Source: Spirochaetia bacterium (lineage in GTDB: Bacteria > Spirochaetota > Spirochaetia > SZUA-6 > Bin103). From it: DNA of 64,000 nucleotides. Made by a program: the position numbers and the translations under genes. Each line of letters begins with the position of its first letter. The stretch's first letter is position 1. Positions 32,048 through 49,043 of this stretch are shown here, piece by piece. The stretch spans positions 3,616,001 through 3,680,000 of the forward strand of contig OZ241863.1 of NCBI GenBank assembly GCA_965203055.1, in the 5' to 3' direction. Under the pieces are notes generated by a model. The model had not been told where the DNA came from, searched no databases, and was given only the letters and a program-made list of their open reading frames with translations.

Positions 32048-35000
32048 ATGAAAGGGCAGTTGTTCACTCAGTACTTTCTGACCGACGGCATCCGCGCGAC
32101 GTCGGAATGGGAGGCCGCGGCAGCGCAGCTCGCCGACTTCCGGCACCGCCTGGACCGCTGCTACGGGCGGTTCGCGGCGCTGCACCAGCCCAACGAGGCG
32201 GTGACCGAGCAGGACCTGATCCGCCCGGTGCTGGCGCTGTTGGGATGGAGCGACTACCTGCCGCAACAGGGCGCCGCCGGCCGCGAGGACGTCCCTGACC
32301 ACCTGCTGTTCGCCGACGCGACCGCCAAGGCGCGGGCCGCGGCGCGCCCCGACTCCGGCGCGCGCTTTCAGGACGCCCTGGTGGTGCAGGAGAGCAAGCG
32401 CTTCGGACTCCCGCTCGACCACCGCGACCGCCGCGGCGGCACGCCGCACGGGCAGATGCTGCGCTACCTGGCGACCGCCGAGCTCGCTTCCGAACACCGC
32501 CTGCGGTGGGGCATCCTGACCAACGGCGGCGTGTGGCGCCTGTACGACGCCCGCGCCCGCCCGCGCGCCGCCGGGTTCTTCGAAGCCGATCTGGCGGAGG
32601 TGCTGCAGCCCGGCGCCGAAGATGGCCTGCGCATCTTCCGGCTGTTGTTCGGGCGCGCTTCCTTTACGCTGCAAGGGACGGCGACCGCCGCCTTCCTCGA
32701 AGCCGCCATCGTCGAGGGCAAGCGCTACGAGGAGGCGGTCGCGCAGGACCTGTCGGCGGTCGTCTTCGAGCGCGTGTTCCCGCGCCTGGTGGCGGCGATC
32801 GCCGCCGCGGCCGGGGAGGGCGCCGGCCTGTCGGAAGTCCGCTCCGCCGCGCTGATCTTCCTGTACCGGCTGCTGTTCCTGCTCTACGCCGAGGACCGCG
32901 GGCTGCTGCCGGTCAACGACGCGCGCTACGATGACTACGGCCTGCGCCGGCGGGTGCGCGACGAGGTGTCCCGCCGGATGGCCGCAGGGGATACCTTCTC
33001 CGCGACCGCCGGCAACTACTACCACCACCTGACCGAGCTGTTCCGGCAGATCGACCGGGGCGATGCGTCGATCGGCCTGCCGCCCTACGACGGCGGCCTG
33101 TTCGCGCCCGAGGCGGCGCCGCTGCTGGAGCGCATCCGGGTGCCGGACACGGTGACCGCCGAGGTGATCTACGATCTCAGCCATACCGCGGTCGGCCAGG
33201 CGCGCGCCGGCCCGGGAACCGACGGCGCGCGGCGCTTCGTCAACTACCGCGACATGTCGGTGCAGCAACTCGGTTCGATCTACGAACGCCTGCTGGAACG
33301 GGAACCGGTGCGCGCCGCCGGCGGCGGGGTGGAGATTCGCCTCGAACCCTACGCCCGCAAGGACAGCGGCAGCTTCTATACCCCGCAGGAGTTGGTCGAT
33401 CTGCTCGTGGATCAGACCCTGAAGCCGCTGGCCGAGGAGCGGCTGCGGGCGTTCGTGACGCGCGCGCAGGAGCTGGCCGCCGACCGCCGACCGCTGGCCG
33501 CGCGGCAGGAGGCTTTGGCGCGGCTCGATCCGGCGGTCGCGGTGCTGCGCCTCAAGGTGCTGGACCCGGCCATGGGCAGCGGCCACTTCCTGGTGACCGC
33601 GGTCGACTTCCTGGCCGACTGCATCGCCGAGCTGATCGAGCGCGCGCCGGGTATGGCGGAGTGGCTGGACGGCGCCTACGAGTCACCTCTGGTGGGCCGG
33701 ATCGCGGAGATTCGGCAGGGGATTCTGCGCCGGGCGCGGGCCGGCGCCTGGGTCATCGACGCGGCGCACCTGACCGACCAGGCGATCATCCGGCGGCTGG
33801 TGCTGAAGCGCTGCATCTACGGGGTGGACAAGAACCCGCTGACGGTGGAACTGGCGAAGGTTTCGTTGTGGCTGCACAGCTTCACGGTGGGGGCGCCGCT
33901 GTCGTTCCTCGACCACCATCTGCGGTGCGGCGACTCGCTGCTTGGCCTGCGCGTGCGGGAGGCGCTGCGCGAGCTGGACCGGCTCGGCGGGTTGTTCGCC
34001 GGGGCGGCGATGGCCGGCGCGGAGGTGGCGGCCGAAGGGATGGGGCGGATCGAGGAGATGTCCGATGCCGACGCCGCGGAGGCGCACGAGTCGGCGGCGG
34101 TGTTCGAGGGGGTGGAGGAGACCACCGCCGACCTGCGCGGGCTGCTCGACCGTCTGTGCGGGCTGCGGTGGATCACGGCCGGCATGAAGGCTGCGGCGCG
34201 CCGGGCATTGGAGCTGCCGCTGGAGCAGACGTTGAACCAGCGGCCGACCGACGCCTACCGGATTCTGGCGCGCGGGGCGGAGGCGGTGCGTGACGGCGCG
34301 CCGGCGGACGGCGCAGCCGGCGGCGCACTGGACGGCGCGGCGGGGACGCTACGGGCAGCCGGAGCCCATGCCCGGCGCGAGCGGTTTCTGCACTGGGAGG
34401 CGGCATTCCCCGGCGTGTGGCGGGAGTGGCAGAACGAGCGACCGGAGGGCGGCTTCGACGCCGTGATCGGCAACCCGCCGTGGGACCGCATCAAGCTGCA
34501 GGAGGTCGAGTGGTTCGCCACCCGCGCGCCGAAGATCGCGCGCGCCCCGACCGCGGCCGCGCGGCGGGCGGCGATCCGCCGGCTGCGGGAGCGGGGCGCA
34601 CCGCTGGCCGCGGCCTTCGATGCGGCCAAGGAACGGGCCGACCAGCTCGCCCGCATGGTGCGCGCGGCCGGCAGCTTCCCGCTGCTCGGCGGCGGCGACG
34701 TCAATCTCTACTCGCTGTTCGTGGAGCGCGCCATGAGCCTGGTCAAACCGGGCGGGCTGGTGGGACTGCTCACCCCATCCGGCATCTACGCCGACAAGAC
34801 CGCCGCCCCGTTTTTCAAAGGGCTCTCTACCGCGGGACGAATCGGCGGCCTGTTCGATTTCGAGAACCGGCGCCCGGGCACCGGGCTACCGCCGTTCTTT
34901 CCAGACGTCAACTCGCGGTTCAAGTTCTGCGCGCTGATCTTCGGGGGCGAAGGACGGCGCTTCACGCAGACCCGGTGCGCCTTCTTCCTGCACGACACCC

Positions 35001-36136
35001 GCTCGGTCGACGATCCGCAGCGCTGCTTCCCGCTGGCGCCGGACGACTTTGCCCGCGTCAATCCCAACACCGGCACCGCGCCGGTGTTCCGCACCCGCCG
35101 CGACGCCGACCTCACCCGCGGTATCTACCAACGCCATCCGGTGCTGGTCGACCGCTCCGGCGCGGAGGAACGCCGCGCTTGGCCGGTCCGCTACCACACG
35201 ATGTTTCACATGACCAACGACTCCGGTCTGTTCCGCACCGCCGCCCAGCTCGACGCCGACGGGTTCTACCGGATCGCCGGCAACCGGTGGAAGCGGGGAG
35301 CCGAGCTCTGCCTGCCGCTGTACGAGGGAAAGATGGTGCAGGCGTTCGACCACCGCGCCGCCAGCGTGATCGTCAACCCCGACAACCTGAACCGGCCGGC
35401 CCAACCCCGCGAGGCCACGCCGGACCAGCACGCCGATCCGCACTGGCTGCCGGACCCGCAGTTCTGGGTACCTGCCGATGCATGCCGGTGGGACTGGCCG
35501 TTGGAGTGGGTCGTCGGATTCAAGGAGATAACCGCTCCCACCAACCACCGCACCGTGATCGGCTCGGTCTTCCCGCAGGCGGCGTTCGGCAACAAGACCC
35601 CGATATTCCTGCCGATGGCGGGCGCCGCTGTCGAGATGACGGACGCCTACAAAGCATCCGCCCCATTGCTGGTCGCCAATCTGAATGCGATGGCGTTCGA
35701 TTTCGTCGCCCGACAGAAGGTGCACGGCCAGACCCTCAATCTGTTCATCGTCGAGCAACTGCCGGTCATCGCGCCCGGCGATTATGACCGGCGCTTCGGC
35801 GCCGCGACCGCGCGCGATCTGGTGCGCGACCACGTCCTGCGCCTCACCTATACCGCCCACGACCTGACGCCCTTCGCCCGCGACCTGGGCTGCGGCGGCG
35901 CGCCGTTCCCCTGGGACCCCGCAGCGCGCCGCCACCTGAGCGCTCGCCTCGACGCCCTCTACTTCCACCTCTACGGCCTGTCCCGCGAGGACGCCGCCTA
36001 CGTCCTCGACACCTTCCCCATCGTCCGCCGCCAGGATGAGACCGCGTGCGGCCGCTACCGCACCCGCGACCTCATCCTCGCCTACATGAACGCCTTGGCC
36101 GCCGGCGACACCACCACCGACGTCACACCGCGCTAG
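32048..36136 (+). CDS. Type IIG restriction-modification fusion (Eco57I-like endonuclease/N6-adenine methyltransferase)
   Basis: N-terminal PD...ESK and WGILTNG; SGSFYTP, motif I LDPAMGSGHFL, motif IV GNPPW; C-terminal TRD-like region. Confidence 0.9.
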   Translation: MKGQLFTQYFLTDGIRATSEWEAAAAQLADFRHRLDRCYGRFAALHQPNEAVTEQDLIRPVLALLGWSDYLPQQGAAGREDVPDHLLFADATAKARAAARPDSGARFQDALVVQESKRFGLPLDHRDRRGGTPHGQMLRYLATAELASEHRLRWGILTNGGVWRLYDARARPRAAGFFEADLAEVLQPGAEDGLRIFRLLFGRASFTLQGTATAAFLEAAIVEGKRYEEAVAQDLSAVVFERVFPRLVAAIAAAAGEGAGLSEVRSAALIFLYRLLFLLYAEDRGLLPVNDARYDDYGLRRRVRDEVSRRMAAGDTFSATAGNYYHHLTELFRQIDRGDASIGLPPYDGGLFAPEAAPLLERIRVPDTVTAEVIYDLSHTAVGQARAGPGTDGARRFVNYRDMSVQQLGSIYERLLEREPVRAAGGGVEIRLEPYARKDSGSFYTPQELVDLLVDQTLKPLAEERLRAFVTRAQELAADRRPLAARQEALARLDPAVAVLRLKVLDPAMGSGHFLVTAVDFLADCIAELIERAPGMAEWLDGAYESPLVGRIAEIRQGILRRARAGAWVIDAAHLTDQAIIRRLVLKRCIYGVDKNPLTVELAKVSLWLHSFTVGAPLSFLDHHLRCGDSLLGLRVREALRELDRLGGLFAGAAMAGAEVAAEGMGRIEEMSDADAAEAHESAAVFEGVEETTADLRGLLDRLCGLRWITAGMKAAARRALELPLEQTLNQRPTDAYRILARGAEAVRDGAPADGAAGGALDGAAGTLRAAGAHARRERFLHWEAAFPGVWREWQNERPEGGFDAVIGNPPWDRIKLQEVEWFATRAPKIARAPTAAARRAAIRRLRERGAPLAAAFDAAKERADQLARMVRAAGSFPLLGGGDVNLYSLFVERAMSLVKPGGLVGLLTPSGIYADKTAAPFFKGLSTAGRIGGLFDFENRRPGTGLPPFFPDVNSRFKFCALIFGGEGRRFTQTRCAFFLHDTRSVDDPQRCFPLAPDDFARVNPNTGTAPVFRTRRDADLTRGIYQRHPVLVDRSGAEERRAWPVRYHTMFHMTNDSGLFRTAAQLDADGFYRIAGNRWKRGAELCLPLYEGKMVQAFDHRAASVIVNPDNLNRPAQPREATPDQHADPHWLPDPQFWVPADACRWDWPLEWVVGFKEITAPTNHRTVIGSVFPQAAFGNKTPIFLPMAGAAVEMTDAYKASAPLLVANLNAMAFDFVARQKVHGQTLNLFIVEQLPVIAPGDYDRRFGAATARDLVRDHVLRLTYTAHDLTPFARDLGCGGAPFPWDPAARRHLSARLDALYFHLYGLSREDAAYVLDTFPIVRRQDETACGRYRTRDLILAYMNALAAGDTTTDVTPR

Positions 36137-36351
36137 CCGTCGGCGTCCAGCGAGAAATCGAGAGCCTCGGAGTAACGCGGAAGCCGGTACCGGAACCGCA
36201 GCGCCGTGCCGCCAAGGAACGCCCAGTCGGAAAATGCCCCGTGGTCCTGCAGCGCAAGCAGGATGCGGGCCTGCAGGTACTCCCGCGCGGTATTGCGCGC
36301 CTGGACGCCGTGCGGCTCGCCGGCGAGCAGCTCCAGCAGCGCCGCTTTCAT
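36133..36351 (-). pseudogene. Truncated AbiEii nucleotidyltransferase toxin
   Basis: REYLQ...FLGGTALR...RYSEALDF (family consensus RxSEDLDF); ends after 72 aa at the R-M stop. Confidence 0.82.
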
Positions 36352-36980
36352 GACCATCCCTCCTCGTCGCGCCAGAGGTTGAGCAGCAGGCGAACGGCGC
36401 GCGCGACCTTGCGCGAACCGGTTCTCAGCACCGCGGCGCGCAGCCGCTCCGCGTCAAGTGAGTCGGCGGGCGTGAGACGAAGCTCCCGCAGGTAGGGAAG
36501 CCGATCGCTGTGCGGGGTCAGATACAGCAGGTCGACCAGCGCCTTCTCGGCGCGGGCGAGCATCACGCGCTGGCCGTGCGCGACCTCGATCTCGACGAAA
36601 CCGAACATCCGCCGCGGGAGCAGGTGGCGAAACAGAAACCGTCCGCGCGGCGTATCGAGCTGCTGCGCCCGGCGGGTGGTGACGCTGGTGGTCACGGGAA
36701 CGTACTCGGGAATCATGCCGTAATGGGCCAGTGCCGAGTGCAAGCTCACATAGGATGCTCGGTCGAGCGCCCCGGCGATGGCGAACGGATGGGCCGGCGC
36801 GGCGGCGTATGGCGCCGCGACGAGATACACCCCGCGCCGGAGCTGCGCGACCCGTCCGGCCTTGACCCAGCGATCCAACTGCCGCCTCAGGTTCTCCGGG
36901 GAGCGTTGTCCCGCAAGGATCTGTCCCGTACGAAACAGCCCATGGGGGGCCACTCTGGCCAGCAGTACCTCGAATCTCAT
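36348..36980 (-). CDS. AbiEi-type antitoxin (type IV TA)
   Basis: wHTH LRRGVY, SYVSLHSALAHYGMIPE, EKALVDLLY; ATGA coupling to the abiEii remnant. Confidence 0.88.
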   Translation of the reverse strand: MRFEVLLARVAPHGLFRTGQILAGQRSPENLRRQLDRWVKAGRVAQLRRGVYLVAAPYAAAPAHPFAIAGALDRASYVSLHSALAHYGMIPEYVPVTTSVTTRRAQQLDTPRGRFLFRHLLPRRMFGFVEIEVAHGQRVMLARAEKALVDLLYLTPHSDRLPYLRELRLTPADSLDAERLRAAVLRTGSRKVARAVRLLLNLWRDEEGWS

Positions 36981-37053
36981 GGCAATAACATGACATCAAT
37001 GTCTATTTATCGCCACGACAGTTCCACGCTATCCGGACGACCGTGTGCTACAC

Positions 37054-37143
37054 TGGCCGTATGACGAGTTCGCCCCGATCGCGGCCGCAATCGACCGGCT
37101 GATGGAGGCCAGGCAATGGGCAAGCACGAAGAAAGACGCCTAG
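37054..37143 (+). pseudogene. C-terminal remnant homologous to the ORF at 44999-45295
   Basis: Translates WPYDEFAPIAAAIDRLMEARQWASTKK versus WPYDEFLPIAKEIDKLLMSRRWASRKK. Confidence 0.75.
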
Positions 37144-37523
37144 ATAGCGACTACTCGGCGAAGCCGCTCTCCGGCCGACCCACCGCCGACGAGATTGCCG
37201 CGGCATGGGACGCAGACCCGTGGGGGCGTAGATTCTTTGTCGCTGACGACGTGATAGAGTTTCCAGATGGCGTCCTGGGAGCCAGATTTTCCGGCAAGTG
37301 GTATGTCGTGGACGATAGCGACAGCAACCGCCAGCGGCCGGACTTCAGCCAGCCCATCGAATGGGAGCCGGGCAAGAAGCCGGCGTTCCGCGTTCGGCAG
37401 GGGGATGACGGTAGCTGGTACGCCGTGAGTGACAACGGCGAACTGGACCTCGACCGACCCGTCAAATTGGTGGATGGCCACTGGGTGGAAGCCGACACAT
37501 CCAACGGAAGCGTTGAGGCATGA
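37116..37523 (+). CDS. Hypothetical acidic Trp-rich protein
   Basis: GGAGG RBS; N-terminus MGK...DSDYS..PL.G shared with 44832-45041. Confidence 0.65.
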   Translation: MGKHEERRLDSDYSAKPLSGRPTADEIAAAWDADPWGRRFFVADDVIEFPDGVLGARFSGKWYVVDDSDSNRQRPDFSQPIEWEPGKKPAFRVRQGDDGSWYAVSDNGELDLDRPVKLVDGHWVEADTSNGSVEA

Positions 37524-37925
37524 CTGCCGTCGAGGAATTGGCCTTGCGGATATCGATCCTGTCCTCCACCGCCGACCCCGCTTCGGTAACGGAGCTCGTC
37601 CCTCCGCGACGGGCGACAATCGGGTCCTGATAGCCGGGCACGTCGTGGAGATGACCCTGTCCTACCGGATCGCCGAGGCGGAACAGGTCTACGGCAAGCG
37701 GTGGGACGATGAGTTGGACCGGCACCTCCAGATGGGATGTTCGCCATAGACCGGATCTCCGCCGACGGTACCATGGGAAAGCGGCGACGGCCCGAACCCC
37801 GCGTGGTCGACGGCGTCTGCCGCCGGACCGCACGGATAGGCAACTGCGAAGACGTGGCCCCGATAAGCCACTCTTGGGGGACGAGGACGATCAATCCAGA
37901 CGGAACCTGCCGCCGCCCCGAGCCG

Positions 37926-37948
37926 TATAGTTGCGTCCCCGGGACGCA
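37926..37948 (+). promoter_or_regulatory. -10-like TATAGT followed by palindrome TGCGTCCC-C-GGGACGCA (copy A)
   Basis: Identical copy at 39732-39754; about 45 bp upstream of each mcrB start; no clear -35. Confidence 0.45.
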
Positions 37949-37993
37949 GCCGATCGACCACTCCACGCTCACCGCGCATGAAGGAGGATAGTT

Positions 37994-39547
37994 GTGTCCA
38001 AAGCTGCAGGATGGGATGCTTACTTCGAACTCGTACTGACCCTCAACTGGGACGATGTCGAGTCGGAGATGGAGCGTAAGCGCGCCAGTGAACGGTATTT
38101 GCGATCAGTAGTAAACAGCGGGGAGCTGCCTAGCGACTTAGCTACCTTCGGGAAACATTTAACTAAACTTAACAACAGGAAGAGGGTGAATGCTCTGTCT
38201 AAATGGCATCACGACGCTCCGGAACAAATGGAGGAAGCTCTGAGACGTCTTTGGGCTGGATTGTCTGACAGGTTGCCGCCGAGAGAAGAGGTATTCACAC
38301 GGATTCGCACATTCGCCGAGCAATTGCCGGTTGTCAAGTATCTCTCCACCCGGGAAGGGCGCATGGCGCTGATCTCCGCCCTGCTCGTAGGGATTTCGGC
38401 GGAGCGTTACCCTCGGTTCGGGGTGGAAATGTTTGAAAAGGCATACAAGTTTACGGACCACCCCGACACGTCCAAGGATGCGGACGAGGCGACTCGGTAT
38501 GAGCACGCGTTGAAGTTTCTCGACAAGTTCGTCGAGGAAGCTCGGGCGCGTGGACTCGAACGGCCTCGCAACCTCCTCGAAGCACGCTCGGTAGTCCGCA
38601 TACTATTCCGTGACAAACTCTACCCGGACCTCGATCCGCCACCGAAGGCCGGGTTGCAGCGGCTCGCCGACGAGTTGCTCATCGAGCGTGCCTTTCCTGT
38701 TCGTGTCAAGAAGCTGTTGGCCGACAAGCGACAGGTCGTGTTCCAGGGGCCGCCGGGTACGGGGAAGACCTACGTCGCGCGGAAGTTGGCGGAGTGCCTG
38801 GCGGGGTCGGCGCAACGCGTCCGGCTGGTGCAGTTCCATCCGTCCTATGCCTACGAGGACTTCGTGCAGGGCTTCCGCCCGTGTTTGCGGGACGGGCAGC
38901 CGGGCTTCGAACTCACCGGCGGACCGCTGCTCGCCGCGGCCGAACAGGCGCGGGCGGAGCCGGACGAGAGGCACTTCCTGGTCATCGACGAGATCAACCG
39001 CGGCAACCTCTCCAAGGTGTTCGGCGAGCTCTACTTCCTGCTCGAATACCGCAACGAGGAGATGAGCCTTCAGTACTCCGCCAAGCCCTTCTCCTTGCCC
39101 GACAACCTGTACTTGATCGGCACGATGAATACCGCCGACCGCTCCATCGCACTGGTAGACCTGGCGCTGCGCCGCCGATTCCACTTCGTGGAGTTTCACC
39201 CCGACAAGCCCCCGGTCGCCGGCCTGCTCGACCGCTGGCTGAAGCAGCACGCCGCCGAGTGGTCCTGGCTGGCGGCCGTCGTCGACCACGCGAATGGCAA
39301 GCTGAGCGACCGGCAGGCGGCGATCGGGCCGAGCTATTTCATGAAGCGGGACCTCGACGACGAGATGGTCCGTCTGATCTGGGAGCACAACGTGCTGCCC
39401 TACGTCGAGGAGCACCTGTACGGGGAGCACGAGCGGCTGCGCGAATTCGATCTGGACGCACTTCGGAAGGAGCTGGGCGACGGCGCGAACCGGGACGGCG
39501 GCGCCCCGCCCGCGGACGACGACGGACCTATCGATGAGACAGATTGA
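37994..39547 (+). CDS. mcrB: McrB-family AAA+ GTPase, copy 1
   Basis: GPPGTGKT, VQFHPSYAYEDF, IDEINRG, MNTADRS, LRRRF; AAGGAGG RBS. Confidence 0.93.
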   Translation: MSKAAGWDAYFELVLTLNWDDVESEMERKRASERYLRSVVNSGELPSDLATFGKHLTKLNNRKRVNALSKWHHDAPEQMEEALRRLWAGLSDRLPPREEVFTRIRTFAEQLPVVKYLSTREGRMALISALLVGISAERYPRFGVEMFEKAYKFTDHPDTSKDADEATRYEHALKFLDKFVEEARARGLERPRNLLEARSVVRILFRDKLYPDLDPPPKAGLQRLADELLIERAFPVRVKKLLADKRQVVFQGPPGTGKTYVARKLAECLAGSAQRVRLVQFHPSYAYEDFVQGFRPCLRDGQPGFELTGGPLLAAAEQARAEPDERHFLVIDEINRGNLSKVFGELYFLLEYRNEEMSLQYSAKPFSLPDNLYLIGTMNTADRSIALVDLALRRRFHFVEFHPDKPPVAGLLDRWLKQHAAEWSWLAAVVDHANGKLSDRQAAIGPSYFMKRDLDDEMVRLIWEHNVLPYVEEHLYGEHERLREFDLDALRKELGDGANRDGGAPPADDDGPIDETD

Positions 39548-39614
39548 CCTGCGGGAATACGAAAGCAGCGAACCGGTTGCGCTCGCGATCGACGAGCGTG
39601 ACCGGTTGGCCGAG
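39534..39614 (+). pseudogene. mcrC 5' fragment (about 27 codons) fused to the copy B leader
   Basis: MRQIDLREYESSEPVALAIDERDRLAE matches the N-terminus of McrC at 41408. Confidence 0.88.
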
Positions 39615-39731
39615 CCCAGCGTGGGCGACAGCGTCTGCCGCCGGTCTGCACGGATAGGCAACTGCGAGACGTGGCCCGATCCACTATTGGATGACGATCA
39701 GCCAGACGGAACCTACGGCCGTCCCGAGCCG

Positions 39732-39754
39732 TATAGTTGCGTCCCCGGGACGCA
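39732..39754 (+). promoter_or_regulatory. -10-like TATAGT plus palindrome (copy B)
   Basis: Identical to 37926-37948. Confidence 0.45.
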
Positions 39755-39798
39755 GCCGATCGACCACTCCACGCTCACCTCGCATGAAGGAGGGTAGT

Positions 39799-41421
39799 AT
39801 GTCCGAAGCTGCAGGATGGGATGCTTACTTCGAACTCGTAAAGACCCGCAAATGGGATGAGGTCGAGCCGTTGCTGGAGTATAAGCGTGCCACTGAACGG
39901 TACTTGCGATTAGTGACCAACGAGGTGCTGTCCAGCAACGAAAACTGGATCAAAAACGCAGCTAAAGATGACCGGCAAAACTTGGAATTTTGCGGCGGTC
40001 AGAGAATGGCAGCTCTGGCCAAATGGTATGACGAAGAGCCGGAACGAGTAGCGGCGGTGCTGAGGGAGCTTTGGGCCTCGTACAATGGATTGCCTGAAAG
40101 GTTACCGCCGAGGGATGAGGTGTTCACACGGATTCGCATATTCGCCAATCAGTTGCCGAGCGTCGACAAGAATCTCCGCGGCCCGGGAGGGCGTATGGGA
40201 CTGATCGCCGCCCTGCTTATGAGGATATCGGCTGAACATTACCCTCCGTTCGGCGTGGACATGTTCCAAAAGGCATACAAGATTACGGGCCACCCACAGC
40301 CACCACCCAAGGCGGACGAGGCGATTCTGTATAAGTACGCGTTGGAGTTCCTCGACAAGTTCGTCGAGGAAGCTCGGGCGCGTAGACTCGATTGGCCACG
40401 CAACCTCCTGGAAGCACAGTCGGTAGTCTACATGCTCCGTAAGAACGATCCCAAGAACCTGCGCAGTGTCCGAATAGTGCCGGAGGTCGACGAGACCGAT
40501 CCTGACTTCGATCCGCTACCGAAGGTCCGGTTGCAGGGTCTCGCCGATGAGTTGCTCATCGAGCGTGCCTTTCTTGGTCGTATCGAGAAGCTGCTGGCCG
40601 ACAAGCGGCAGGTCGTGTTCCAGGGGCCGCCGGGAACGGGAAAGACCTATGTCGCGCGGAAGTTGGCGGAGTGTCTGGCGGGGTCGGCGGAACGCGTCCG
40701 GCTGGTGCAGTTCCATCCGTCCTATGCCTACGAGGACTTCGTGCAGGGCTTCCGCCCGTGTTTGCGGGACGGGCAGCCGGGCTTCGAACTCACCGGCGGA
40801 CCGCTGCTCGCCGCGGCCGAACAGGCGCGGGCGGAGCCGGACGAGAGGCACTTCCTGGTCATCGACGAGATCAACCGCGGCAACCTCTCCAAGGTGTTCG
40901 GCGAGCTCTACTTCCTGCTCGAATACCGCAACGAGGAGATGAGCCTTCAGTACTCCGCCAAGCCCTTCTCCCTGCCCGACAACCTGTACTTGATCGGCAC
41001 GATGAATACCGCCGACCGCTCCATCGCACTGGTAGACCTGGCGCTGCGCCGCCGATTCCACTTCGTGGAGTTTCACCCCGACAAGCCGCCGGTCGCCGGC
41101 CTGCTCGACCGCTGGCTGGCGAAGCATGCCGCCGAGTGGGCCTGGCTGGCCGCCGCCGTCGACCGCGCGAATGAGAAGTTGAGCGACCGGCAGGCGGCGA
41201 TCGGGCCGAGCTACTTCATGAAGCGGGACCTCGACGACGAGATGGTCCGTCTGATCTGGGAGCACAACGTGCTGCCCTACGTCGAGGAGCACCTGTACGG
41301 GGAGCACGATCGGTTGCGCGAATTCGATCTGGACGCACTTCGGAAGGAGCTGGGCGAAGGCGCGAACCGGGACGGCGGCGCGCCGCCCGCGGACGACGGC
41401 CCGGAAGATGAGACAGATTGA
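39799..41421 (+). CDS. mcrB: McrB-family AAA+ GTPase, copy 2
   Basis: Same GTPase motifs as copy 1; diverged N-terminal domain; AAGGAGG RBS. Confidence 0.93.
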   Translation: MSEAAGWDAYFELVKTRKWDEVEPLLEYKRATERYLRLVTNEVLSSNENWIKNAAKDDRQNLEFCGGQRMAALAKWYDEEPERVAAVLRELWASYNGLPERLPPRDEVFTRIRIFANQLPSVDKNLRGPGGRMGLIAALLMRISAEHYPPFGVDMFQKAYKITGHPQPPPKADEAILYKYALEFLDKFVEEARARRLDWPRNLLEAQSVVYMLRKNDPKNLRSVRIVPEVDETDPDFDPLPKVRLQGLADELLIERAFLGRIEKLLADKRQVVFQGPPGTGKTYVARKLAECLAGSAERVRLVQFHPSYAYEDFVQGFRPCLRDGQPGFELTGGPLLAAAEQARAEPDERHFLVIDEINRGNLSKVFGELYFLLEYRNEEMSLQYSAKPFSLPDNLYLIGTMNTADRSIALVDLALRRRFHFVEFHPDKPPVAGLLDRWLAKHAAEWAWLAAAVDRANEKLSDRQAAIGPSYFMKRDLDDEMVRLIWEHNVLPYVEEHLYGEHDRLREFDLDALRKELGEGANRDGGAPPADDGPEDETD

Positions 41422-42637
41422 CCTGCGAGAATACGAGCGTAGCGAGCCGGTTGCGCTCGCGATCGACGAGCGTGACCGGTTGGCCGAGGCGCTCCGCGGG
41501 TCGATCACCATCGAGCCTGCGCCCGGCGCGGAGGACCGGTACTTCCTGACGCCGGGCTCCACCATCGGCGCGCTCGAAATCGGCGGCCTGTCGGTATCGA
41601 TCCGTCCCAAGCTGTCCATCTCGCGCGTGCTCTTTCTGGCGTCCTACGCCGCCGACAGGATCGAGCTGCGGGACCGCTTCGACTTCAGGGACGTGCAGGA
41701 CGTCGTGGAGCTGTTGGCGCTGCAGCTCGAGGCGGCCGCGCGGCAGGCGTTCGCCGCCGGACTGCTGCACGGGTATCGGACCGAGCAGGAAGCGCTGCAT
41801 ACCGTTCGCGGCCGCATCCGCGTCGAGGAGCAGCTCCGGCGCCGGTTCGGCCTCCCCGTGCCGCTGGAAGTCCAATACGACGAGTTCACGGACGACGTTA
41901 CGGCGAACCGGCTGGTGAAGGCGGCCGCCGCACGGCTCGCGCGGATGCGCACCCGCGCGCCCCGGTCGCGCGCCGGCCTGGCGTGGATCGGCGCGCGGCT
42001 CGATGCCGTGTCGCTGGTCGAGTACCCCGCGAACGCCGTGCCGGCGGTCGCGTTCGACCGGTTGAACCGCCACTACCGCCAAGTCGTGAAACTGTCCCAA
42101 CTCATCCTGCGGCAGCGGTCCTTCGATGCCGGCCGCGGCGGCGTCCACGCGGCGGGCTTTCTGATGGACATGAACGTGATCTTCCAGGAATTCGTCACGC
42201 GCGCGCTCCGGGACGCGCTGCATGTTTCGGAGCGCGTGTTCCGCTCCGATGACCAGCTCCGGCGGGTAACGCTGGACGAAGCCGGAAAGGTAGGGCTCCG
42301 GCCCGACCTGACGTGGTGGGACGGCGCGCGCTGCACGTTCGCCGGCGACGTCAAGTACAAGAGGATCAGGGACGCGCACGTGCCCAACGCCGACCTGTAC
42401 CAGCTCCTGGCCTACGTCACCGCGCTCGATCTGCCGGGCGGGCTGCTGATCTATGCGCAGGGCGAAGACGATCCGGCGTCACATCGGGTCCGTCACTCGG
42501 GGAAGCTGCTGGAGGTCGAAGCCCTCGACCTGTCCGGGACGCCGGCGGCCCTGCTCGCCAGGATCGATCAATTGGCGGACCAAGCCCGCACCCTGCGCGC
42601 CGCAGCCGTCCAACGCCTCGAACGCCGCGCGGCGTGA
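41408..42637 (+). CDS. mcrC: McrC-family restriction nuclease subunit
   Basis: DEFTDDVTANR, FLMDMNVIFQEFV, PD-(D/E)XK core LRPDL...DVKYK, ADLYQLLAY. Confidence 0.92.
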   Translation: MRQIDLREYERSEPVALAIDERDRLAEALRGSITIEPAPGAEDRYFLTPGSTIGALEIGGLSVSIRPKLSISRVLFLASYAADRIELRDRFDFRDVQDVVELLALQLEAAARQAFAAGLLHGYRTEQEALHTVRGRIRVEEQLRRRFGLPVPLEVQYDEFTDDVTANRLVKAAAARLARMRTRAPRSRAGLAWIGARLDAVSLVEYPANAVPAVAFDRLNRHYRQVVKLSQLILRQRSFDAGRGGVHAAGFLMDMNVIFQEFVTRALRDALHVSERVFRSDDQLRRVTLDEAGKVGLRPDLTWWDGARCTFAGDVKYKRIRDAHVPNADLYQLLAYVTALDLPGGLLIYAQGEDDPASHRVRHSGKLLEVEALDLSGTPAALLARIDQLADQARTLRAAAVQRLERRAA

Positions 42638-42717
42638 CCGGCTAGTCGCCGGGGCGTCGCTGCGGACGCGGAACATTGGGGGCGCTGAAGGAGCGTTCGT
42701 CGCCGCAGCCCTGTTCG

Positions 42718-43251
42718 TCAGGTGCTGCCTGCTCCGAGTCGACCGAGCTCGTTCTTGAAGCGGGCGATTACCCGTTCGTTGACGTGCAATGGGTTCGATT
42801 CCTGCATCTTGTGGGCGATAGCCGTGGCTCGCTGCGGAGTGACCGCTCCGGCGGCAACGACGTCCACCAGAAGACGAAGCCCGAAGCGGGCCCGGACCGC
42901 GCGGCGCTCGCACAGCCGGCGGAGTGCCGGGTCATTGGTAACGCAGGTCCACCCTTCCTCGCGGCACGTCACGAAGCAGAGACGGTCATTGAAGGACAAG
43001 GACACATCCATATCGACGCTGCCTGCCCTGAGCAGGCGGCTGGTGGCAACCTCGACGACGGAGACCGCCAAGCGCGTACAATCGGCTCGCGTCACCCCGT
43101 GCACCGCGTCCAACACCGGCGCGAGCACGGCCACGCGGCCGACGTGTTGGCCTATGAGCTTGAGCACCTCAAGATCGGAGTCGCGGTAATCGATGAAAAC
43201 GTCCGCGTCGACCAGGAGAACGGGGGGCGCGGATCGGTTCAGGTAGCCCAC
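42718..43251 (-). CDS. PIN-domain protein (putative nuclease toxin)
   Basis: LLVDADVFID, LSFND, VTNDPALR acidic PIN pattern; overlaps the XRE-peptidase 3' end. Confidence 0.78.
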   Translation of the reverse strand: MGYLNRSAPPVLLVDADVFIDYRDSDLEVLKLIGQHVGRVAVLAPVLDAVHGVTRADCTRLAVSVVEVATSRLLRAGSVDMDVSLSFNDRLCFVTCREEGWTCVTNDPALRRLCERRAVRARFGLRLLVDVVAAGAVTPQRATAIAHKMQESNPLHVNERVIARFKNELGRLGAGST

Positions 43252-44408
43252 TCACGAATGCGCTCCCGCATCTGCTCCTGGCTGAGGTTCAGGATTTCGG
43301 CGCCGCGCCCGATGGAGATACGCCCTTCCCGCAGCGCCTGGCGCACGAGGCGCGACAGACGATCTTCCATAAAATCATGCCGGGAAAGGCGGTCCGGCTC
43401 CCCCGAGCGGCCCCAATGCCAAGCGAACTCGCTCTGTCCCAGAGCGTGCGGCTCTTCGACCGTGCGCAACGTGCTCCCGGAGTACCGGCGATGTTGGGCA
43501 TGGAACGCTCCCCAGACATCGCTCGTTCCTCGCCCGGATTCGACCAGCCGGTAGAGCACCGTCTGGTAACTCACGCGGAACATCCGCTTGACCTTCAGCA
43601 CGCGCTCCAACAGCGAATGTCCCTCGGTCTGGTCCCACGCCGCCGCGAACGCCTCCTCCGGCATCAGGAACCGACTCGCGAAGGAGTCCGCTTCTCGTTC
43701 CGCCGTCGGATGGAGGTCGGTGGCGTCGCGCCGGTAATCGTCGGGGTGCAGCAACAGGTGACCCAACTCGTGGGCGGCCGTGAAGATCCAGCGCTCCACG
43801 GAGATCCGTTCCCAGGTATTCACCACCACGGCCGGGCCGCCGGCCCCGGTGCCGACGCTCAGCCCGAAGAACGAGTCGCGCCGGGTGTCCAGCAGCAGCA
43901 CCTTGACGCCGTGCCTCTCCAGCAGGCCGCAGATGTCCTGCACCGGCTCGCGTGTTCCGAGTCCGAACTTCTTGCGCGCGGCCTGTGCGACAGTAACGGC
44001 GTCATGGGCCGGGCCGGGAGGTTTCTTGACCGCGAACGGTTGAGGAGTGACGCCGAGATCAGCCTCCAGCGCGCAGTAGGCGTCGAGCCAGGTCGCAACC
44101 CGGGCCAGGATCTGCTCACGGGCGTGGACGCGCGTCCCCGCGCGAAACCGCACGCTCTCCAGGCGCCGCACCGGAGTCACCAGCTCGCCGACGGACACGC
44201 CGAGCACCTTGGCCAGCGCGGCCAGCGTCCGCGCCTGCGGCACCACCTCCCCGCGCTCGATCTTGCCCACGGACACCCGCGACAGCCCGGCCTCGCGGGC
44301 GAGCTCCGCCTGCGTGAGCTCACGGTCCAGCCGCAGCCGGGCGACGTTGGCCGCGACCCCAATTTCAGGCGCGTCTCCCTTGACAGCATCCCCTTCGACA
44401 GTTATCAT
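43239..44408 (-). CDS. XRE HTH + ImmA/IrrE (M78) metallopeptidase fusion
   Basis: LTQAELAREAGLSRVSVGKIERG; FTAAHELGH; EREADSFASRFLMP; start uncertain. Confidence 0.92.
   Translation of the reverse strand: MITVEGDAVKGDAPEIGVAANVARLRLDRELTQAELAREAGLSRVSVGKIERGEVVPQARTLAALAKVLGVSVGELVTPVRRLESVRFRAGTRVHAREQILARVATWLDAYCALEADLGVTPQPFAVKKPPGPAHDAVTVAQAARKKFGLGTREPVQDICGLLERHGVKVLLLDTRRDSFFGLSVGTGAGGPAVVVNTWERISVERWIFTAAHELGHLLLHPDDYRRDATDLHPTAEREADSFASRFLMPEEAFAAAWDQTEGHSLLERVLKVKRMFRVSYQTVLYRLVESGRGTSDVWGAFHAQHRRYSGSTLRTVEEPHALGQSEFAWHWGRSGEPDRLSRHDFMEDRLSRLVRQALREGRISIGRGAEILNLSQEQMRERIREWAT
44380..44408 (+). promoter_or_regulatory. Near-consensus sigma70 promoter, copy 1, overlapping the XRE gene start
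   Basis: TTGACA-17 bp-TATCAT. Confidence 0.7.
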
Positions 44409-44458
44409 ATACACAGATTCAGAAGAAATGACAATCTCAGAGACGGAGACAACACGTA

Positions 44459-44506
44459 ATGAGCACGACGATCACGTTCTTCCCAGTTGGCGACGGCGAC
44501 ATGACG
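44459..44506 (+). pseudogene. N-terminal remnant of a ComEC-like metallo-beta-lactamase-fold hydrolase
   Basis: GGAG RBS; MSTTITFFPVGDGDMT resembles the conserved first strand (F.VG.GD); similarity is lost afterwards and there is no HxHxDH. Confidence 0.55.
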
Positions 44507-44695
44507 TCCCGGATCATATCATCGGTGGCAGGCATCCGGCGGCTCCCGCATGAGGTGACGTCCAGCTCGCCGGCGGCGATGCCCGGCAGCTCGGCGGCAA
44601 CGCCGATCGACCACGCCGCGCTCACCGCGCACGATGAACCAAGCAGACCGGCGAGATAGGCCGGAAGGCAGCCGAATAGGGGAGAGGAGACATCG

Positions 44696-44812
44696 GTGAT
44701 ATTTGCACAGGCATTAGTCTTCGTTTCGTGGAAGATATACGAAACAGTCGCGTATTTTGCATACGTTGGCGTGGTTCGTATCGTTCAACTAGTTGAGTCG
44801 GTATTGTTGTGA
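44696..44812 (+). CDS. Putative 38-aa hydrophobic small protein
   Basis: GGAGAGGAG RBS + GTG; MIFAQALVFVSWKIYETVAYFAYVGVVRIVQLVESVLL; below the ORF-track cutoff. Confidence 0.3.
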   Translation: MIFAQALVFVSWKIYETVAYFAYVGVVRIVQLVESVLL

Positions 44813-44831
44813 ACAAGATCTTCGACGGCGG

Positions 44832-45041
44832 TCATGGCTTGCGCGGCGGCAGCAGCTTCTCGCCGGTGTACGCGTCCCAGGCGTTGCCGTCAGCGTCGAC
44901 GCGGACGAGGGTGTCCTCGTGACGCATCCCCCGCGCGGCATCCGCCCGGAGCTCCTCGATCGTGATCCCTCCGAGCGGGCGCCCGGAGTAATCGCTGTCT
45001 ACGGCTTGGGTTTCTTCGGCTTCTTCTTTCTGCTTGCCCAT
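44832..45041 (-). CDS. Small acidic hypothetical protein
   Basis: MGK...DSDYSGRPLGG start is homologous to 37116; overlaps its upstream ORF in the same way. Confidence 0.6.
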   Translation of the reverse strand: MGKQKEEAEETQAVDSDYSGRPLGGITIEELRADAARGMRHEDTLVRVDADGNAWDAYTGEKLLPPRKP

Positions 45042-45295
45042 CTGCGACTCATCAGGAGCTTATCGATCTCCTTCGCTATCGGCAAGAACTCGTCATACGG
45101 CCACTGCCTGATCCGCGTGGTCGGCTGTGCATGGGTGAGTATCTTGTCGAGCTGCGCCTTGAGGACCGATGACCCGCTCCGCCACGCAATGTACTGCGCA
45201 TACGCCCGCGCCCACAACTCGGCCTCGTGGGTCAGGTAGGCATTGCCGAGCTGCTGCAGGCGGCCCTTGACAGCATCTCCACCGCTGGTTATCAT
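44999..45295 (-). pseudogene. 5'-truncated ORF, possibly the C-terminal part of a zincin-like domain
   Basis: YL...ELWARAYAQYIA helix and QWPYDEF; 5' end runs into the duplicated promoter. Confidence 0.5.
45267..45295 (+). promoter_or_regulatory. Near-consensus sigma70 promoter, copy 2, upstream of nuclease-mcrB3-mcrC2
   Basis: TTGACA-17 bp-TATCAT with the same flanks as copy 1; AAGGAGG RBS downstream. Confidence 0.75.
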
Positions 45296-45336
45296 ATGGT
45301 CGATGATCGTTAAGATGATACAAGGAGGATAAGAGA

Positions 45337-45939
45337 ATGGCGCGGGTCGGAACCTTGCACCATCAGGTCGTTGACCAACTGATGAAACGGTTCTATGGCG
45401 GACCGTTGATAAACAACGTCTATCGGGGAGATTACGTCGAGGCACTGATCCTTTCCGCTTTGGGAGAAAAGTGGAAGCCTATTGGCGAGTGGGGCGGTTG
45501 GGACCTGGAAAGGGACGATGGCATCCGCTTGGAAGTCAAGCAGTCGGCGGCCCGGCAGCCCTGGCACGCTGCGGCGTCTGCCGGAAAGCCTTCCCGCTCC
45601 AGCTTCTACATCACTCCTCGTGGAGGGTACTACACCGATGCCGGATTTTGGAAGAGGTTTGATCCACCTGTCCGCTTTGCCGACATCTACGTCTTTGCCT
45701 GGCACCCGGAAAAGGCTCCCGACATTGCTGACCACCGTTGGGCCGAACAGTGGGAATTTTACGTGGTACGGGAGAGCAAGCTGCCGCCGAAGCCGCAAAG
45801 GACAAAGACGCAGAAAAGAAGTATCAGTACGGTCAAGAAACTGGCGGCGGCAGTTACCTATGACGAACTGGCCGCAAAGGTAACGGAATTGGCGGCGGAG
45901 ATTCCGCGTCGAGAGCTGAAAGCCAATCGGTTGAGGTAA
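45337..45939 (+). CDS. Putative PD-(D/E)XK nuclease
   Basis: RGDYVE helix, then WDL...IRLEVKQS catalytic pattern; strong RBS. Confidence 0.65.
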   Translation: MARVGTLHHQVVDQLMKRFYGGPLINNVYRGDYVEALILSALGEKWKPIGEWGGWDLERDDGIRLEVKQSAARQPWHAAASAGKPSRSSFYITPRGGYYTDAGFWKRFDPPVRFADIYVFAWHPEKAPDIADHRWAEQWEFYVVRESKLPPKPQRTKTQKRSISTVKKLAAAVTYDELAAKVTELAAEIPRRELKANRLR

Positions 45940-45985
45940 CGAAGGCCACCTCACATACACCGGCAATACCGAAGGAGGATAAGAA

Positions 45986-47806: not shown

Positions 47807-49043
47807 CCGGACTGCCGACTCTTTCACGTGTCGGGAATGGCAGCATCTGCCGGTCGGCGGTAACGGCCTTTCGGAGCGAGATGCCCGCCGACTGCACGCG
47901 CTTGCCGAGCGCGCACGCCGGCGGTTGGCGCCGCCGGCGGAGGTCCTGACCCGTACTAGCACCGGCATCAAGGCGGGTCAGGTAGTAGGCGTTCTGGCCG
48001 TGCCCGGCGGGCCGACCCTCGAGATCCTGCCCAAGATCGATCATGAGAACGGCGCCGTGCGGGCGGCGCTGGTGCGCATGCTCGCGGTCGCCTGGGGCTT
48101 GCGCGTGACCGACGGTGAGCTTGCGTCGATGGACACTCAGCGGTGCGATCTCCTCGAGATACTCATCCGGCTGTTCATCGCGCGACTGCTCACGATCGTC
48201 CGCCGCGGGTTGCCGCGCCGCTATCGCGAGCATCAGGAGGACCTGAAGCAACTGCGCGGTCGTCTGAACGTGACGCGGCAGGTAACCCGTTTCGTTGGCC
48301 GTCCCGATCAGATCGCCTGCCGCTTCGAGGAGTGGTCCGAGGACACGCCGCTGAACCGCGTGCTGAAGGCCGCGGTGTCGAGGCTCGCCGGTCTGACGCG
48401 CTCGGCCGATACCAGCCGGCGGCTCGCCGAGCTTGCCGCCCGCCTGGAGTTCGTGGGCGATACTGCGGACCCGTTGCGCGAGCAGGTGCGTCTGGACCGC
48501 ACCAACACGGCGTTTCACGACATATATCGTCAGGCCTGCCGGTTTCTCGCCCGGGAGTGGCAAGATACGACCACCGGAGCCGCGCAGGGCTTCGCACTGC
48601 TGTTCCCCATGAACGAGCTGTTCGAGGAGTTCGTGGGCCGCAGCGTTCGCGCCGCCTCTTCCCGGCCCGTCCATCTCCAACACTGGAGGCATCATGCGGT
48701 CGACGCCGCGCGCCCGCTGTTCGCCCTGCGGCCCGACATCGCCGTGGAGACGCCGGACGGCTGGGTCATTCTCGATACGAAGTGGAAGCGGCTCACGTTC
48801 GGCGACGACAAGCTGGGTATCGCCTCATCCGACATCTACCAGATGGCGGTCTACGGCGACGCCTATCGCGCCCAACGAGTGGTTCTGATCTATCCGTGGC
48901 ATGAGGGCGTGGACCGCCCGCCCGGGATTCTCCGCAACTGGTCGATCCGCGGCACCGGCCGCCGGCTCGACGTCGCGACCGTGGACGTCGGCCGCCCCGA
49001 TGCGGTGGTCGAATCGTTGCGCCAAATCGTGACCAACGGGTGA
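47796..49043 (+). CDS. mcrC: McrC-family restriction nuclease subunit 2
   Basis: LEILPKI, SEDTPLNR, FPMNELFEEFV, LRPDI...LDTKWK, DIYQMAVY. Confidence 0.92.
   Translation: MPNSRTADSFTCREWQHLPVGGNGLSERDARRLHALAERARRRLAPPAEVLTRTSTGIKAGQVVGVLAVPGGPTLEILPKIDHENGAVRAALVRMLAVAWGLRVTDGELASMDTQRCDLLEILIRLFIARLLTIVRRGLPRRYREHQEDLKQLRGRLNVTRQVTRFVGRPDQIACRFEEWSEDTPLNRVLKAAVSRLAGLTRSADTSRRLAELAARLEFVGDTADPLREQVRLDRTNTAFHDIYRQACRFLAREWQDTTTGAAQGFALLFPMNELFEEFVGRSVRAASSRPVHLQHWRHHAVDAARPLFALRPDIAVETPDGWVILDTKWKRLTFGDDKLGIASSDIYQMAVYGDAYRAQRVVLIYPWHEGVDRPPGILRNWSIRGTGRRLDVATVDVGRPDAVVESLRQIVTNG

Follow-up and report, generated by a model that had tools for sequence, protein, structure and literature searches.

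Within a 64,000-nucleotide (nt) stretch of the genome of a Spirochaetia bacterium (contig OZ241863.1 of assembly GCA_965203055.1, positions 3,616,001 to 3,680,000; hereafter, the window), we analyzed an operon in which two tandem mcrB genes, mcrB1 and mcrB2, precede a single mcrC gene. In McrBC systems, hexameric McrB binds DNA via its N-terminal domain (N-domain), and McrC bridges the hexamers and cuts. The operon studied here has the layout leader-mcrB1-(mcrC scar)-leader-mcrB2-mcrC and is a genuine, evolutionarily retained tandem duplication. Its two McrB proteins (B1 and B2) diverge mainly in the N-domain, for which we also use the term reader, and differ at only 14 of 290 positions in the AAA+ GTPase part, or motor. 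With moderate confidence, we read the locus as a restriction operon of type IV (modification-dependent) in which two readers are combined with one nuclease.

Anatomy of the tandem duplication

A unit of ~1.82 kb comprising a leader of ~200 nt, a complete mcrB gene, and the first 26 codons of mcrC is duplicated head to tail (37792-39609 and 39610-41487). Using a repeat finder, we identified nine two-copy direct-repeat families with start-to-start spacings of 1805-1877 nt across 37792-41488. Aligned pairwise, the copies are homologous from a sharp start at 37792/39610 to 39611/41485, and 100-nt control stretches beyond these edges are unrelated sequence (41% and 56% identity). Both analyses agree with a first-pass annotation, made by a model from the sequence alone, in which a head-to-tail repeat of ~1.8 kb joined at CCGA near 39610 had been proposed. 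The junction reads ...GGTTGGCCGA followed directly by GCCCAGC, and the CCGA microhomology is common to the left edge of the leader (GGCCCGAACC) and to mcrC codons 25-26 (GGCCGAGG). Its presence at both edges is the trace expected from an illegitimate, microhomology-mediated duplication. The features of the operon (aa, amino acids) are as follows:

37792..37993 (+), leader copy 1 (5' untranslated region or tail of an upstream open reading frame [ORF]), with the ribosome-binding site AAGGAGG at 37981-37987; 170/189 aligned nt identical to copy 2
37994..39547 (+), mcrB1, 517 aa, GTG start with AAGGAGG 6 nt upstream; McrB-type AAA+ GTPase with a divergent, B1-type N-domain
37994..38620 (+), McrB1 N-domain, ~207 aa; predicted to be all-helical with a fold like that of HhH-GPD/Ogg2 proteins
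38814..39210 (+), gene-conversion tract copy 1 (GTPase core); 396/397 nt identical to 40691-41087
39534..39611 (+), mcrC' scar, the first 26 mcrC codons, overlapping the mcrB1 end as the real mcrC overlaps mcrB2; 73/78 nt identical to 41408-41485
39610..39798 (+), leader copy 2; 170/189 aligned nt identical to leader copy 1
39799..41421 (+), mcrB2, 540 aa, ATG start with AAGGAGG 5 nt upstream; McrB-type AAA+ GTPase with a B2-type N-domain; there is a 14-nt overlap between its end and the start of mcrC
39799..40443 (+), McrB2 N-domain, 215 aa; predicted fold as in the McrB1 N-domain
40691..41087 (+), gene-conversion tract copy 2, pairing with 38814-39210
41408..42637 (+), mcrC, 409 aa, the only full nuclease-subunit gene of the operon (PF10117)

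The reading frames of mcrB1, mcrB2, and mcrC are all open, as the first-pass annotation had stated for the two mcrB ORFs, and the peptides that it quoted are all present in the translations. As in an adjacent, translationally coupled pair, mcrC begins at 41408 (ATG), before mcrB2 has ended (stop codon at 41419-41421), and only the 26-codon scar follows mcrB1. A longer mcrB2 ORF starting at 39691 is probably not used, because the 540-aa form matches the mcrB1 start and is itself an entry in the protein collection (exact match).

Both McrB translations contain the canonical GTPase motifs GPPGTGKT, LVIDEINR, and MNTADRS as well as RRRF; we take GPPGTGKT, VIDEINR, and MNTADRS to be the Walker A, the Walker B, and the McrB signature NTAD motif, respectively. 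PF07728 (AAA_5) matches McrB1 with an expect value (E) of 3.6e-21 (residues 248-396) and McrB2 with an E of 9.6e-21. The NCBIfam McrB model NF008457 gives an E of ~4e-46 (4.3e-46 for McrB2) and, for McrB1, 157.7 bits; both proteins are far below the equivalog cut-off of 637, and neither is, as judged by these model scores, an equivalog of Escherichia coli McrB. McrC matches PF10117 (McrBC) over residues 49-350 (E 1.3e-50) and scores 93.6 bits with the NCBIfam McrC model, which is under the cut-off of 338. Its translation contains RPD...GDVKYK, a motif of PD-(D/E)xK type. PADLOC returned generic REase_II/AAA matches for the McrB proteins and none for McrC and a reader-only protein described below.

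Read in frame, the scar continues through leader 2 as an 87-aa ORF that extends from inside the mcrB1 end to a TAG at 39795-39797, one base before the mcrB2 ATG. Its counterpart at leader 1 is an 84-aa ORF (37737-37991) with its stop codon two bases before the mcrB1 GTG. These ORFs could reflect translational coupling or chance in GC-rich DNA. An Rfam search of 36000-48000 gave two subthreshold matches only, with none in the leaders, and RNA folding of the leaders against shuffled sequences gave no sign of structured RNA (z -0.46 for leader 1 and -0.31 for leader 2). A promoter and terminator scan of 36900-42900 detected 0 promoter-like sites and 2 terminator-like sites versus 4.5 expected.

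Mosaic divergence and reader alleles

According to the first-pass annotation, divergence between the copies was concentrated in the N-terminal domain, with indels, and the 3' part of the leader, the first codons, and the whole GTPase were nearly identical. The first statement is borne out by the translations: McrB1 and McrB2 are identical at 128 of 212 aligned N-terminal positions (60%) and at 284 of 302 positions in the remainder (94%). The second holds for a core block of the GTPase (99.7%), but the GTPase region as a whole is a mosaic that also includes blocks of 87-89% identity. Following the unit from left to right, the leaders are 90% identical, the first 34 codons 84%, the centers of the N-domains 72% (372/516 nt, with 36 gap columns), and the linkers 89%, with one 45-nt indel. 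The GTPase core then follows, with a longest exact run of 281 nt, after which the next 92 nt are 87% identical, the rest of mcrB 96%, and the mcrC scar 94%.

We determined synonymous (dS) and nonsynonymous (dN) divergence by Nei-Gojobori counting. In the N-domain center, dS is 0.436, about three times that of the flanks, and dN/dS is 0.71. In the first 40 codons and in the GTPase outside the core, dS is 0.11-0.21, and the core itself has 2 synonymous differences in 94 synonymous sites. These contrasts were significant in Fisher tests (core versus remaining GTPase, P = 0.003; N-domain center versus flanks, P = 0.0004). Because selection on the protein cannot raise dS, the N-domain centers are older than the rest of the unit or of outside origin. 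The silent-site counts support that the N-domains have an older or separate history, beyond fast divergence after duplication, and that the GTPase core is younger than the rest of the unit. The GC content is 55.0% in the B1 N-domain, 55.2% in the B2 N-domain, 66% in the motor, and 68.2% in the window.

Alleles from other assemblies bear on the history of the core. In the B2-type alleles P0157 and P0159, the N-domain is identical to that of B2 (215/215), and the core carries V321, K331, D334, R343, and Q381; at these five residues, B2 of the genome studied has the residues of B1. In the B1-type alleles P0154, P0152, and P0153, the core residues are those found in both copies of the genome studied. 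Because unconverted cores exist in alleles of other assemblies, the core was recently homogenized by gene conversion in the lineage of this genome, and, as the pattern of residues shows, the B1 core overwrote the B2 core. Concerted evolution is thus evident both from a tract of near-identity between blocks of 89% and 87% and from unconverted alleles elsewhere, and the similarity of the B1 and B2 motors is partly due to a recent gene-conversion tract. Given the direct repeats and the 397-nt tract of near-identity, unequal crossing-over should be possible, leading either to collapse to a gene with a B1 reader and a B2 tail or to expansion. No collapsed or expanded form of the repeat was seen. 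One metagenome contig (X8) that joins 38067 to 39873 was considered as a collapsed form and is read instead as a ~90%-identical relative aligning partly to each copy.

Phylogenetic trees of the two parts of the protein differ. B1 and B2 pair closely as sisters when the tree is built from the GTPase (support 100/99). In the N-domain tree, all copies of the genome studied and P0002, a B1-type fragment from another source, form one clade (100/99), B1 and P0002 are on a long stem (0.44), and the partner of B2 is not B1 but the first domain of a GTPase-less protein (84/92), which likewise points to an older or separate history of the N-domains. The readers of relatives are 30-60% identical and their motors 70-80%. 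The third allele, P0156/P0158, is identical to B2 at 165 of 214 reader positions, with the 49 differences mostly before residue 125, and at 277-278 of 290 motor positions (12-13 differences). Taken together, the differences among the B1, B2, and P0156 readers are mostly in residues 15-125. The B1-type N-domain is almost unchanged in three alleles (206/206, 206/206, and 205/206), the GTPase parts of which carry 1-5 changes, and P0002 is 84% identical. From these comparisons, we infer that B1 is a fast-evolving, derived reader and that B2 is a reader typical of the family.

The GTPase-less protein is 468 aa long and consists of two tandem N-domains (G000:C1:3242253-3243659; L003 1480-2886), which are 76% and 67% identical to the B2 reader at the protein level and 83% and 79% at the DNA level. 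The start of its gene overlaps the end of a gene for a protein with SLFN_AlbA_2 and HATPase_c_4 domains. This double-reader protein could be a trans-acting reader or a reservoir of reader cassettes. We also noted a 91-aa remnant of the C-terminal half of a reader (L007 1495-1770, minus strand; G000:C1 ~2728000-2728360) that is 72% identical to B2 residues 124-215, has stop codons nearby, and looks like a decayed copy.

The N-domain and its proposed function

Neither N-domain matched a Pfam family at E ≤ 10, PF00730 (HhH-GPD) included, in line with the first-pass annotation, in which the domain was not recognized. In an exhaustive search with the 215 residues of B2, 341 representative proteins were found at E ≤ 0.001, of which 140 were at E ≤ 1e-10. 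AAA_5 directly follows the domain in 41 of 50 relatives, these being the longer ones picked from the 150 listed of the 341. Judging from this arrangement, the N-domain (~205 aa) represents a family that is usually placed directly before McrB-type GTPases; this uncharacterized family of 341 representative clusters is without a Pfam model in the library used. In the ESM Atlas, the 30 nearest clusters are unnamed, and the nearest named one is DUF8425 (0.92).

An alignment of 31 rows contains the motifs WDxY, ExxYK, LRxLWA, RIRxF...LP, GxGTRxRxISxLLMGL, YPPF, ADEAxLYEHALxFLD, and RLEAQSVVW. Differences between B1 and B2 favor columns that are variable in the family (mean conservation 0.46 versus 0.58, P = 0.0009). 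Among the 47 columns that are ≥80% conserved, B1 and B2 differ at 14, and B1 is the one deviating from the consensus in 11 of these 14. Among the conserved residues that B1 has lost are W50, P150, and the two glycines in the hairpin-like motif GxGTR.

We predicted the structures of both N-domains using AlphaFold2. The models of the B2 N-domain (B2N; predicted local distance difference test [pLDDT] 92.8) and of the B1 N-domain (B1N; pLDDT 94.6) both have a predicted template modeling score of 0.90 and are all-helical. For both, the best match in an exhaustive structural alignment is 3n0u_A (Tm1821), with a Z score of 8.1, a root mean square deviation (rmsd) of 3.9, and 164 aligned residues for B2N (next row Z 5.1) and a Z of 8.7, an rmsd of 3.6, and 158 aligned residues for B1N (next row Z 4.6). 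In a second look at B2N, 3knt_D (MjOgg) came first (Z 7.5, rmsd 4.0, 153 aligned; next row Z 3.7). Ogg2-type 8-oxoguanine glycosylases are thus at the top for both models, aligned over the length of the domain and 3-4 Z units above the next row, with the limit that Z values of 7.5-8.7 are middling for a helical protein and can arise by chance. Among the best 30 rows for B1N, 17 are titled DNA glycosylases, EndoIII, or MutY, i.e., members of the HhH-GPD superfamily. Foldseek against the PDB gave nothing at E ≤ 0.001, hhalign gave a probability of 0.14 when the family was compared with 24 EndoIII-type proteins from this genome and related ones, and a PDB sequence search with the family profile gave a best E of 0.76, to unrelated proteins. 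The two-lobed all-helical HhH-GPD fold is therefore seen in the predicted models and not by the sequence models (PF00730 and profile). We consider it likely that the N-domain has an HhH-GPD fold as predicted, with descent from the HhH-GPD superfamily as a possibility.

In active HhH-GPD enzymes, a Gly/Pro-rich loop ends in Asp, and bifunctional enzymes have a Lys as well. By one-dimensional spacing only, GxGTR in the N-domain family resembles the HhH hairpin, and YPPF, ~20 residues further on, ends in a nearly invariant Phe. Because this Phe is at the position expected for the Asp under that rule, the family would probably be catalytically dead.

Sensors of this kind have been described in another context. 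An inactive EndoIII/hOgg1-like domain (iEndoIII) is reported as the sensor of END nucleases, which attack hypermodified phage DNA, in a preprint (Yee et al. 2025, PMC12191111); according to the same preprint, swapping iEndoIII changes the preference of END, and fusions of the sensor with a NucS-like nuclease and with a McrB-like GTPase exist as well. The N-domains resemble END sensors as described there in their predicted fold class (an HhH-GPD-fold domain without a recognizable active glycosylase signature), in their putative role as the module of a defense nuclease that senses modification, and, given the McrB-like fusion, in architecture. They differ in that their best matches are Ogg2 and not EndoIII or hOGG1, and a tandem two-reader layout is not mentioned in the abstract, section 9, and legend passages of PMC12191111. 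The likeness to Ogg2 (Tm1821 and MjOgg) itself comprises size (206-209 aa) and a predicted fold along the whole domain (Z 7.5-8.7, rmsd 3.6-4.0, 153-164 aligned). Identity to Ogg2 in the structural alignments is only 7-11%, and the N-domains further differ in lacking profile similarity, in being fused to a McrB motor, and, as their sequence suggests, probably in lacking catalytic residues.

Based on these observations, we propose that the N-domain would act as a base-flipping sensor of non-canonical bases, probably dead catalytically and using its fold as iEndoIII does in END nucleases. Each McrB variant would form hexamers, possibly mixed, and mixed rings appear possible because the motors are nearly the same. 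The hexamers would bind DNA through readers that flip out and inspect non-canonical bases; GTP-driven translocation would come next, followed by cleavage by a single recruited McrC. With two readers, the spectrum of modified DNA under attack would be broadened or divided, and probably a larger variety of modified phage DNA could be recognized. The first-pass annotation had already proposed a type IV module that diversifies specificity through two readers and one nuclease; this proposal is partly supported, namely by the anatomy of the operon and by a plausible predicted HhH-GPD/Ogg2-like fold of the reader, which Foldseek did not return.

Several observations weigh against a two-reader operon of this kind. 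These include the middling Z scores and the negative Foldseek and hhalign results. Many relatives have a further 100-300 aa ahead of the domain, in one case HARE-HTH, so that the domain need not be the sole or main reader. The overall dN/dS of the N-domain, at 0.75, is below the >1 that would demonstrate positive selection. B1, given its departures from the family consensus, could be degenerate rather than retargeted. Two adjacent full-length copies were found in none of the other genomes among 463 searched. Finally, in the sequencing data set X1, the N-domain pieces 38006-38548 and 39919-40380 have depths of 24 and 16.6 compared with 41-52 for flanks and linkers, and the shared-core piece has a depth of 44.8, without doubling.

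The departures of B1 from the consensus lead to the alternative that the duplicate is redundant or decaying, with B1 drifting or serving as a modulatory subunit only, as the short form of McrB does in E. coli, and with the locus functioning as an ordinary single-reader McrBC. We regard this as a tentative possibility. In agreement with it, B1 lacks residues that the family conserves (W50, P150, and the hairpin-like GxG among them) and has a long stem in the N-domain tree, and the dN/dS of 0.75 is compatible with relaxed constraint; on the other hand, all 517 codons of B1 remain in an intact frame although the silent sites of the unit have diverged by ~13-20%, the B1 N-domain is predicted to fold with high confidence, and this N-domain is preserved in three alleles with changes in the GTPase and at 84% identity in P0002.

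The locus could also be a natural cassette system with one motor and many readers, a scenario that we hold to be doubtful. In such a system, gene conversion would keep the motors interchangeable, mixed B1/B2 hexamers acting with one McrC would allow combinatorial recognition of hypermodified DNA, and recombination would move readers between mcrB1, mcrB2, and reader genes that lack a GTPase part (the 468-aa protein and fragments), yielding the B1, B2, and P0156-type alleles.

It is quite unlikely that the helical N-domain, instead of reading nucleic acid, serves this McrB subfamily as a regulatory module or an adaptor (e.g., one that contacts partner proteins or senses a phage protein), with its divergence reflecting an arms race with protein ligands or inhibitors. 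The position of the domain, always immediately before the AAA+ part and often behind other N-terminal domains, would fit an adaptor, as would the GTPase-less tandem protein beside a Schlafen/AlbA_2-HATPase_c_4 gene and the lack of sequence similarity to glycosylases. A report that END nucleases are bound by inhibitors from phages, likely through iEndoIII (PMC12191111), also points in this direction. However, the top structural matches of both models are size-matched DNA glycosylases aligned along the whole domain, and the N-terminal domains of McrB proteins are described as established DNA-binding parts (PMC2614495, PMC11090510). We consider it very unlikely that the N-domain is an active DNA glycosylase, with excision of modified bases alongside cutting by the McrB motor and McrC instead of passive sensing: the predicted HhH-GPD fold and the nearly invariant acidic residues D173 and D186 would be in agreement with such an activity, but no glycosylase sequence model matched, and, by the rule and the one-dimensional spacing used above, the YPPF loop ends in Phe where active enzymes have Asp.

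The two-reader, one-nuclease operon can be compared with several known systems. It shares with the canonical McrBC of E. coli K-12 an AAA+ GTPase McrB with a variable N-terminal DNA reader, an mcrC overlapping the end of mcrB, the McrB motifs, and a PF10117 McrC; it differs in having two tandem mcrB genes per mcrC, an N-domain that is not DUF3578/ADAM but, as predicted, all-helical and HhH-GPD-like, and NCBIfam scores far under the cut-offs. Pairs of McrB homologs with a divergent N-terminal DNA-binding region in one genome are described by Fukuda et al. (2008, PMC2614495), who proposed shifted specificity that their assays were unable to demonstrate. The locus studied here is similar in that two McrB proteins in one genome differ mainly N-terminally, but the paralogs in that report are two complete mcrBC homologs per genome, e.g., on chromosome and plasmid, whereas here two mcrB genes share one mcrC in one operon with a scar and concerted motor evolution. 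LlaI and BsuMI are described as three-gene relatives of McrBC with a reader (R1), a motor (R2), and a nuclease (R3) (bioRxiv 10.64898/2026.08.31.748284). They have in common with the present locus a three-gene McrBC-type operon, and their separate reader is a precedent for the GTPase-less N-domain proteins; as described there, R1 lacks a motor and the system is site-specific, whereas both upstream genes here encode full reader-motor fusions. Passages of a McrBC census (PMC11090510) do not mention two, multiple, second, or paralogous McrB proteins or a glycosylase, and its supplements may list such architectures or the domain. We found no description of two reader-motor genes with one mcrC in the open-access papers searched. 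The class of reader and diverged McrB paralogs are already in print, and the new details are the layout of two readers and one nuclease in a single operon, the concerted evolution of the motors, the reader alleles at strain level, and a double-domain gene that encodes readers only.

Few modification-dependent defenses are more common than McrBC systems, and what is known of how their target range changes or widens comes mostly from comparisons of distant homologs. At this locus, such a change would be displayed within one operon and among close strains, with a uniform motor, a diverging reader of predicted glycosylase fold (60% identity between the paralogs and 77% for the third allele), and a single nuclease gene. 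The locus therefore offers a compact case for two questions, i.e., whether one McrC serves two readers, and whether dead-glycosylase sensors of Ogg2/EndoIII type, so far tested in END nucleases, set the specificity of McrBC.

Assembly, distribution, and genomic neighborhood

Exact pieces of both N-domains are present in contigs of sequencing runs from three studies. Contigs of X3 (39585-39840) and X4 (39585-39747) cross the 39610 junction with 25 nt on the left and 138-231 nt on the right, the left side being shorter than the 31 letters that we used as the rule for bridging. Other assemblies have entries for proteins similar to B1, B2, and McrC, each of the three on a contig of 138,068 nt and on one of 20,122 nt; this is independent support for the arrangement at the level of occurrence and not of gene order. 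The uneven depths in X1 suggest mixed strains with other reader or core alleles, and contig depths are unable to decide this. Overall, an assembly artifact is unlikely. In particular, a chimera in which alleles of a single-copy mcrB from two strains were joined, which the first-pass annotation had raised against its own proposal, is extremely unlikely: the X1 N-domain depths sum to about the flank depth and the shared core is not doubled, but an assembler would not join mcrC codon 26 precisely to a leader at a 4-nt microhomology, the scar has mismatches of its own (5/78) and leader 2 a divergence of 10%, the copy-specific linkers are at full X1 depth (48.2 and 51.2), junction-specific contigs occur in X3 and X4 from other studies, the core piece in X3 has about twice the depth of the flank (4.3 versus 2), both paralogs are recorded in two further assemblies, and the genome is a single 4.56-Mb contig.

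Among the 463 genomes, the N-domain was found only in the taxonomic family to which the window belongs (13/23 and 7/11 genomes in two draws versus 0/37 and 0/389 elsewhere). A search of the collected genome contigs with B2N alone returned no relative, and a search with a 6-row alignment (A3) returned one locus, L078; in metagenome contigs, no related locus was found with B1N or with A3. The relative G012 has two partial reader domains, a C-terminal half and an N-terminal half (L028 10030-10329 and 12081-12809, both minus strand), located 4-6 kb upstream of its single mcrBC and with a 495-aa ORF between them. These fragments may be a disrupted second reader gene.

The surroundings of the operon in the window are a defense island, which includes the following features:

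32048-36136, type IIG/DrmMI-like methylase-nuclease, 1362 aa
36133-36980 (-), AbiEi antitoxin (210 aa), then a 74-aa N-terminal piece of an AbiEii toxin; the piece abuts the end of the type IIG/DrmMI-like gene
within the island, a PIN gene and an HTH-M78 gene
45986-47806 and 47697-49043, a second, unrelated McrBC pair, McrB3 (606 aa) and McrC2 (448 aa; PF10117 E 1.9e-73)

The AbiEi/AbiEii genes look like a truncated toxin-antitoxin pair. The N-terminal 290 aa of McrB3 match no Pfam family and have a GC content of 54.6% versus 66.2% in its GTPase, and a 200-aa ORF of no known family (45337-45939) is located directly upstream of this second McrBC pair.

Small ORFs with an N-terminal D(S/T)DYS(G/A)(R/K)P motif, for which no Pfam, NCBIfam, or PADLOC family was found, are present in the window at 37116-37523 (+) and 44832-45041 (-) and in L028 at 6622-7335 (-). 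They are upstream of mcrB both here and in G012 and have weak similarity (52% over 25 aa, E 6e-4). In addition, a 33-nt piece of the 3' part of the leader (GCCGATCGACCAC...CGCGCA) is found again at 44602-44634, with 91% and 88% identity (blastn E 7e-7). This third copy is 5 kb downstream, with the HTH-M78 gene on one side and the second McrBC pair on the other, and in one shared reading frame, all three places encode PIDHxxLTAH.

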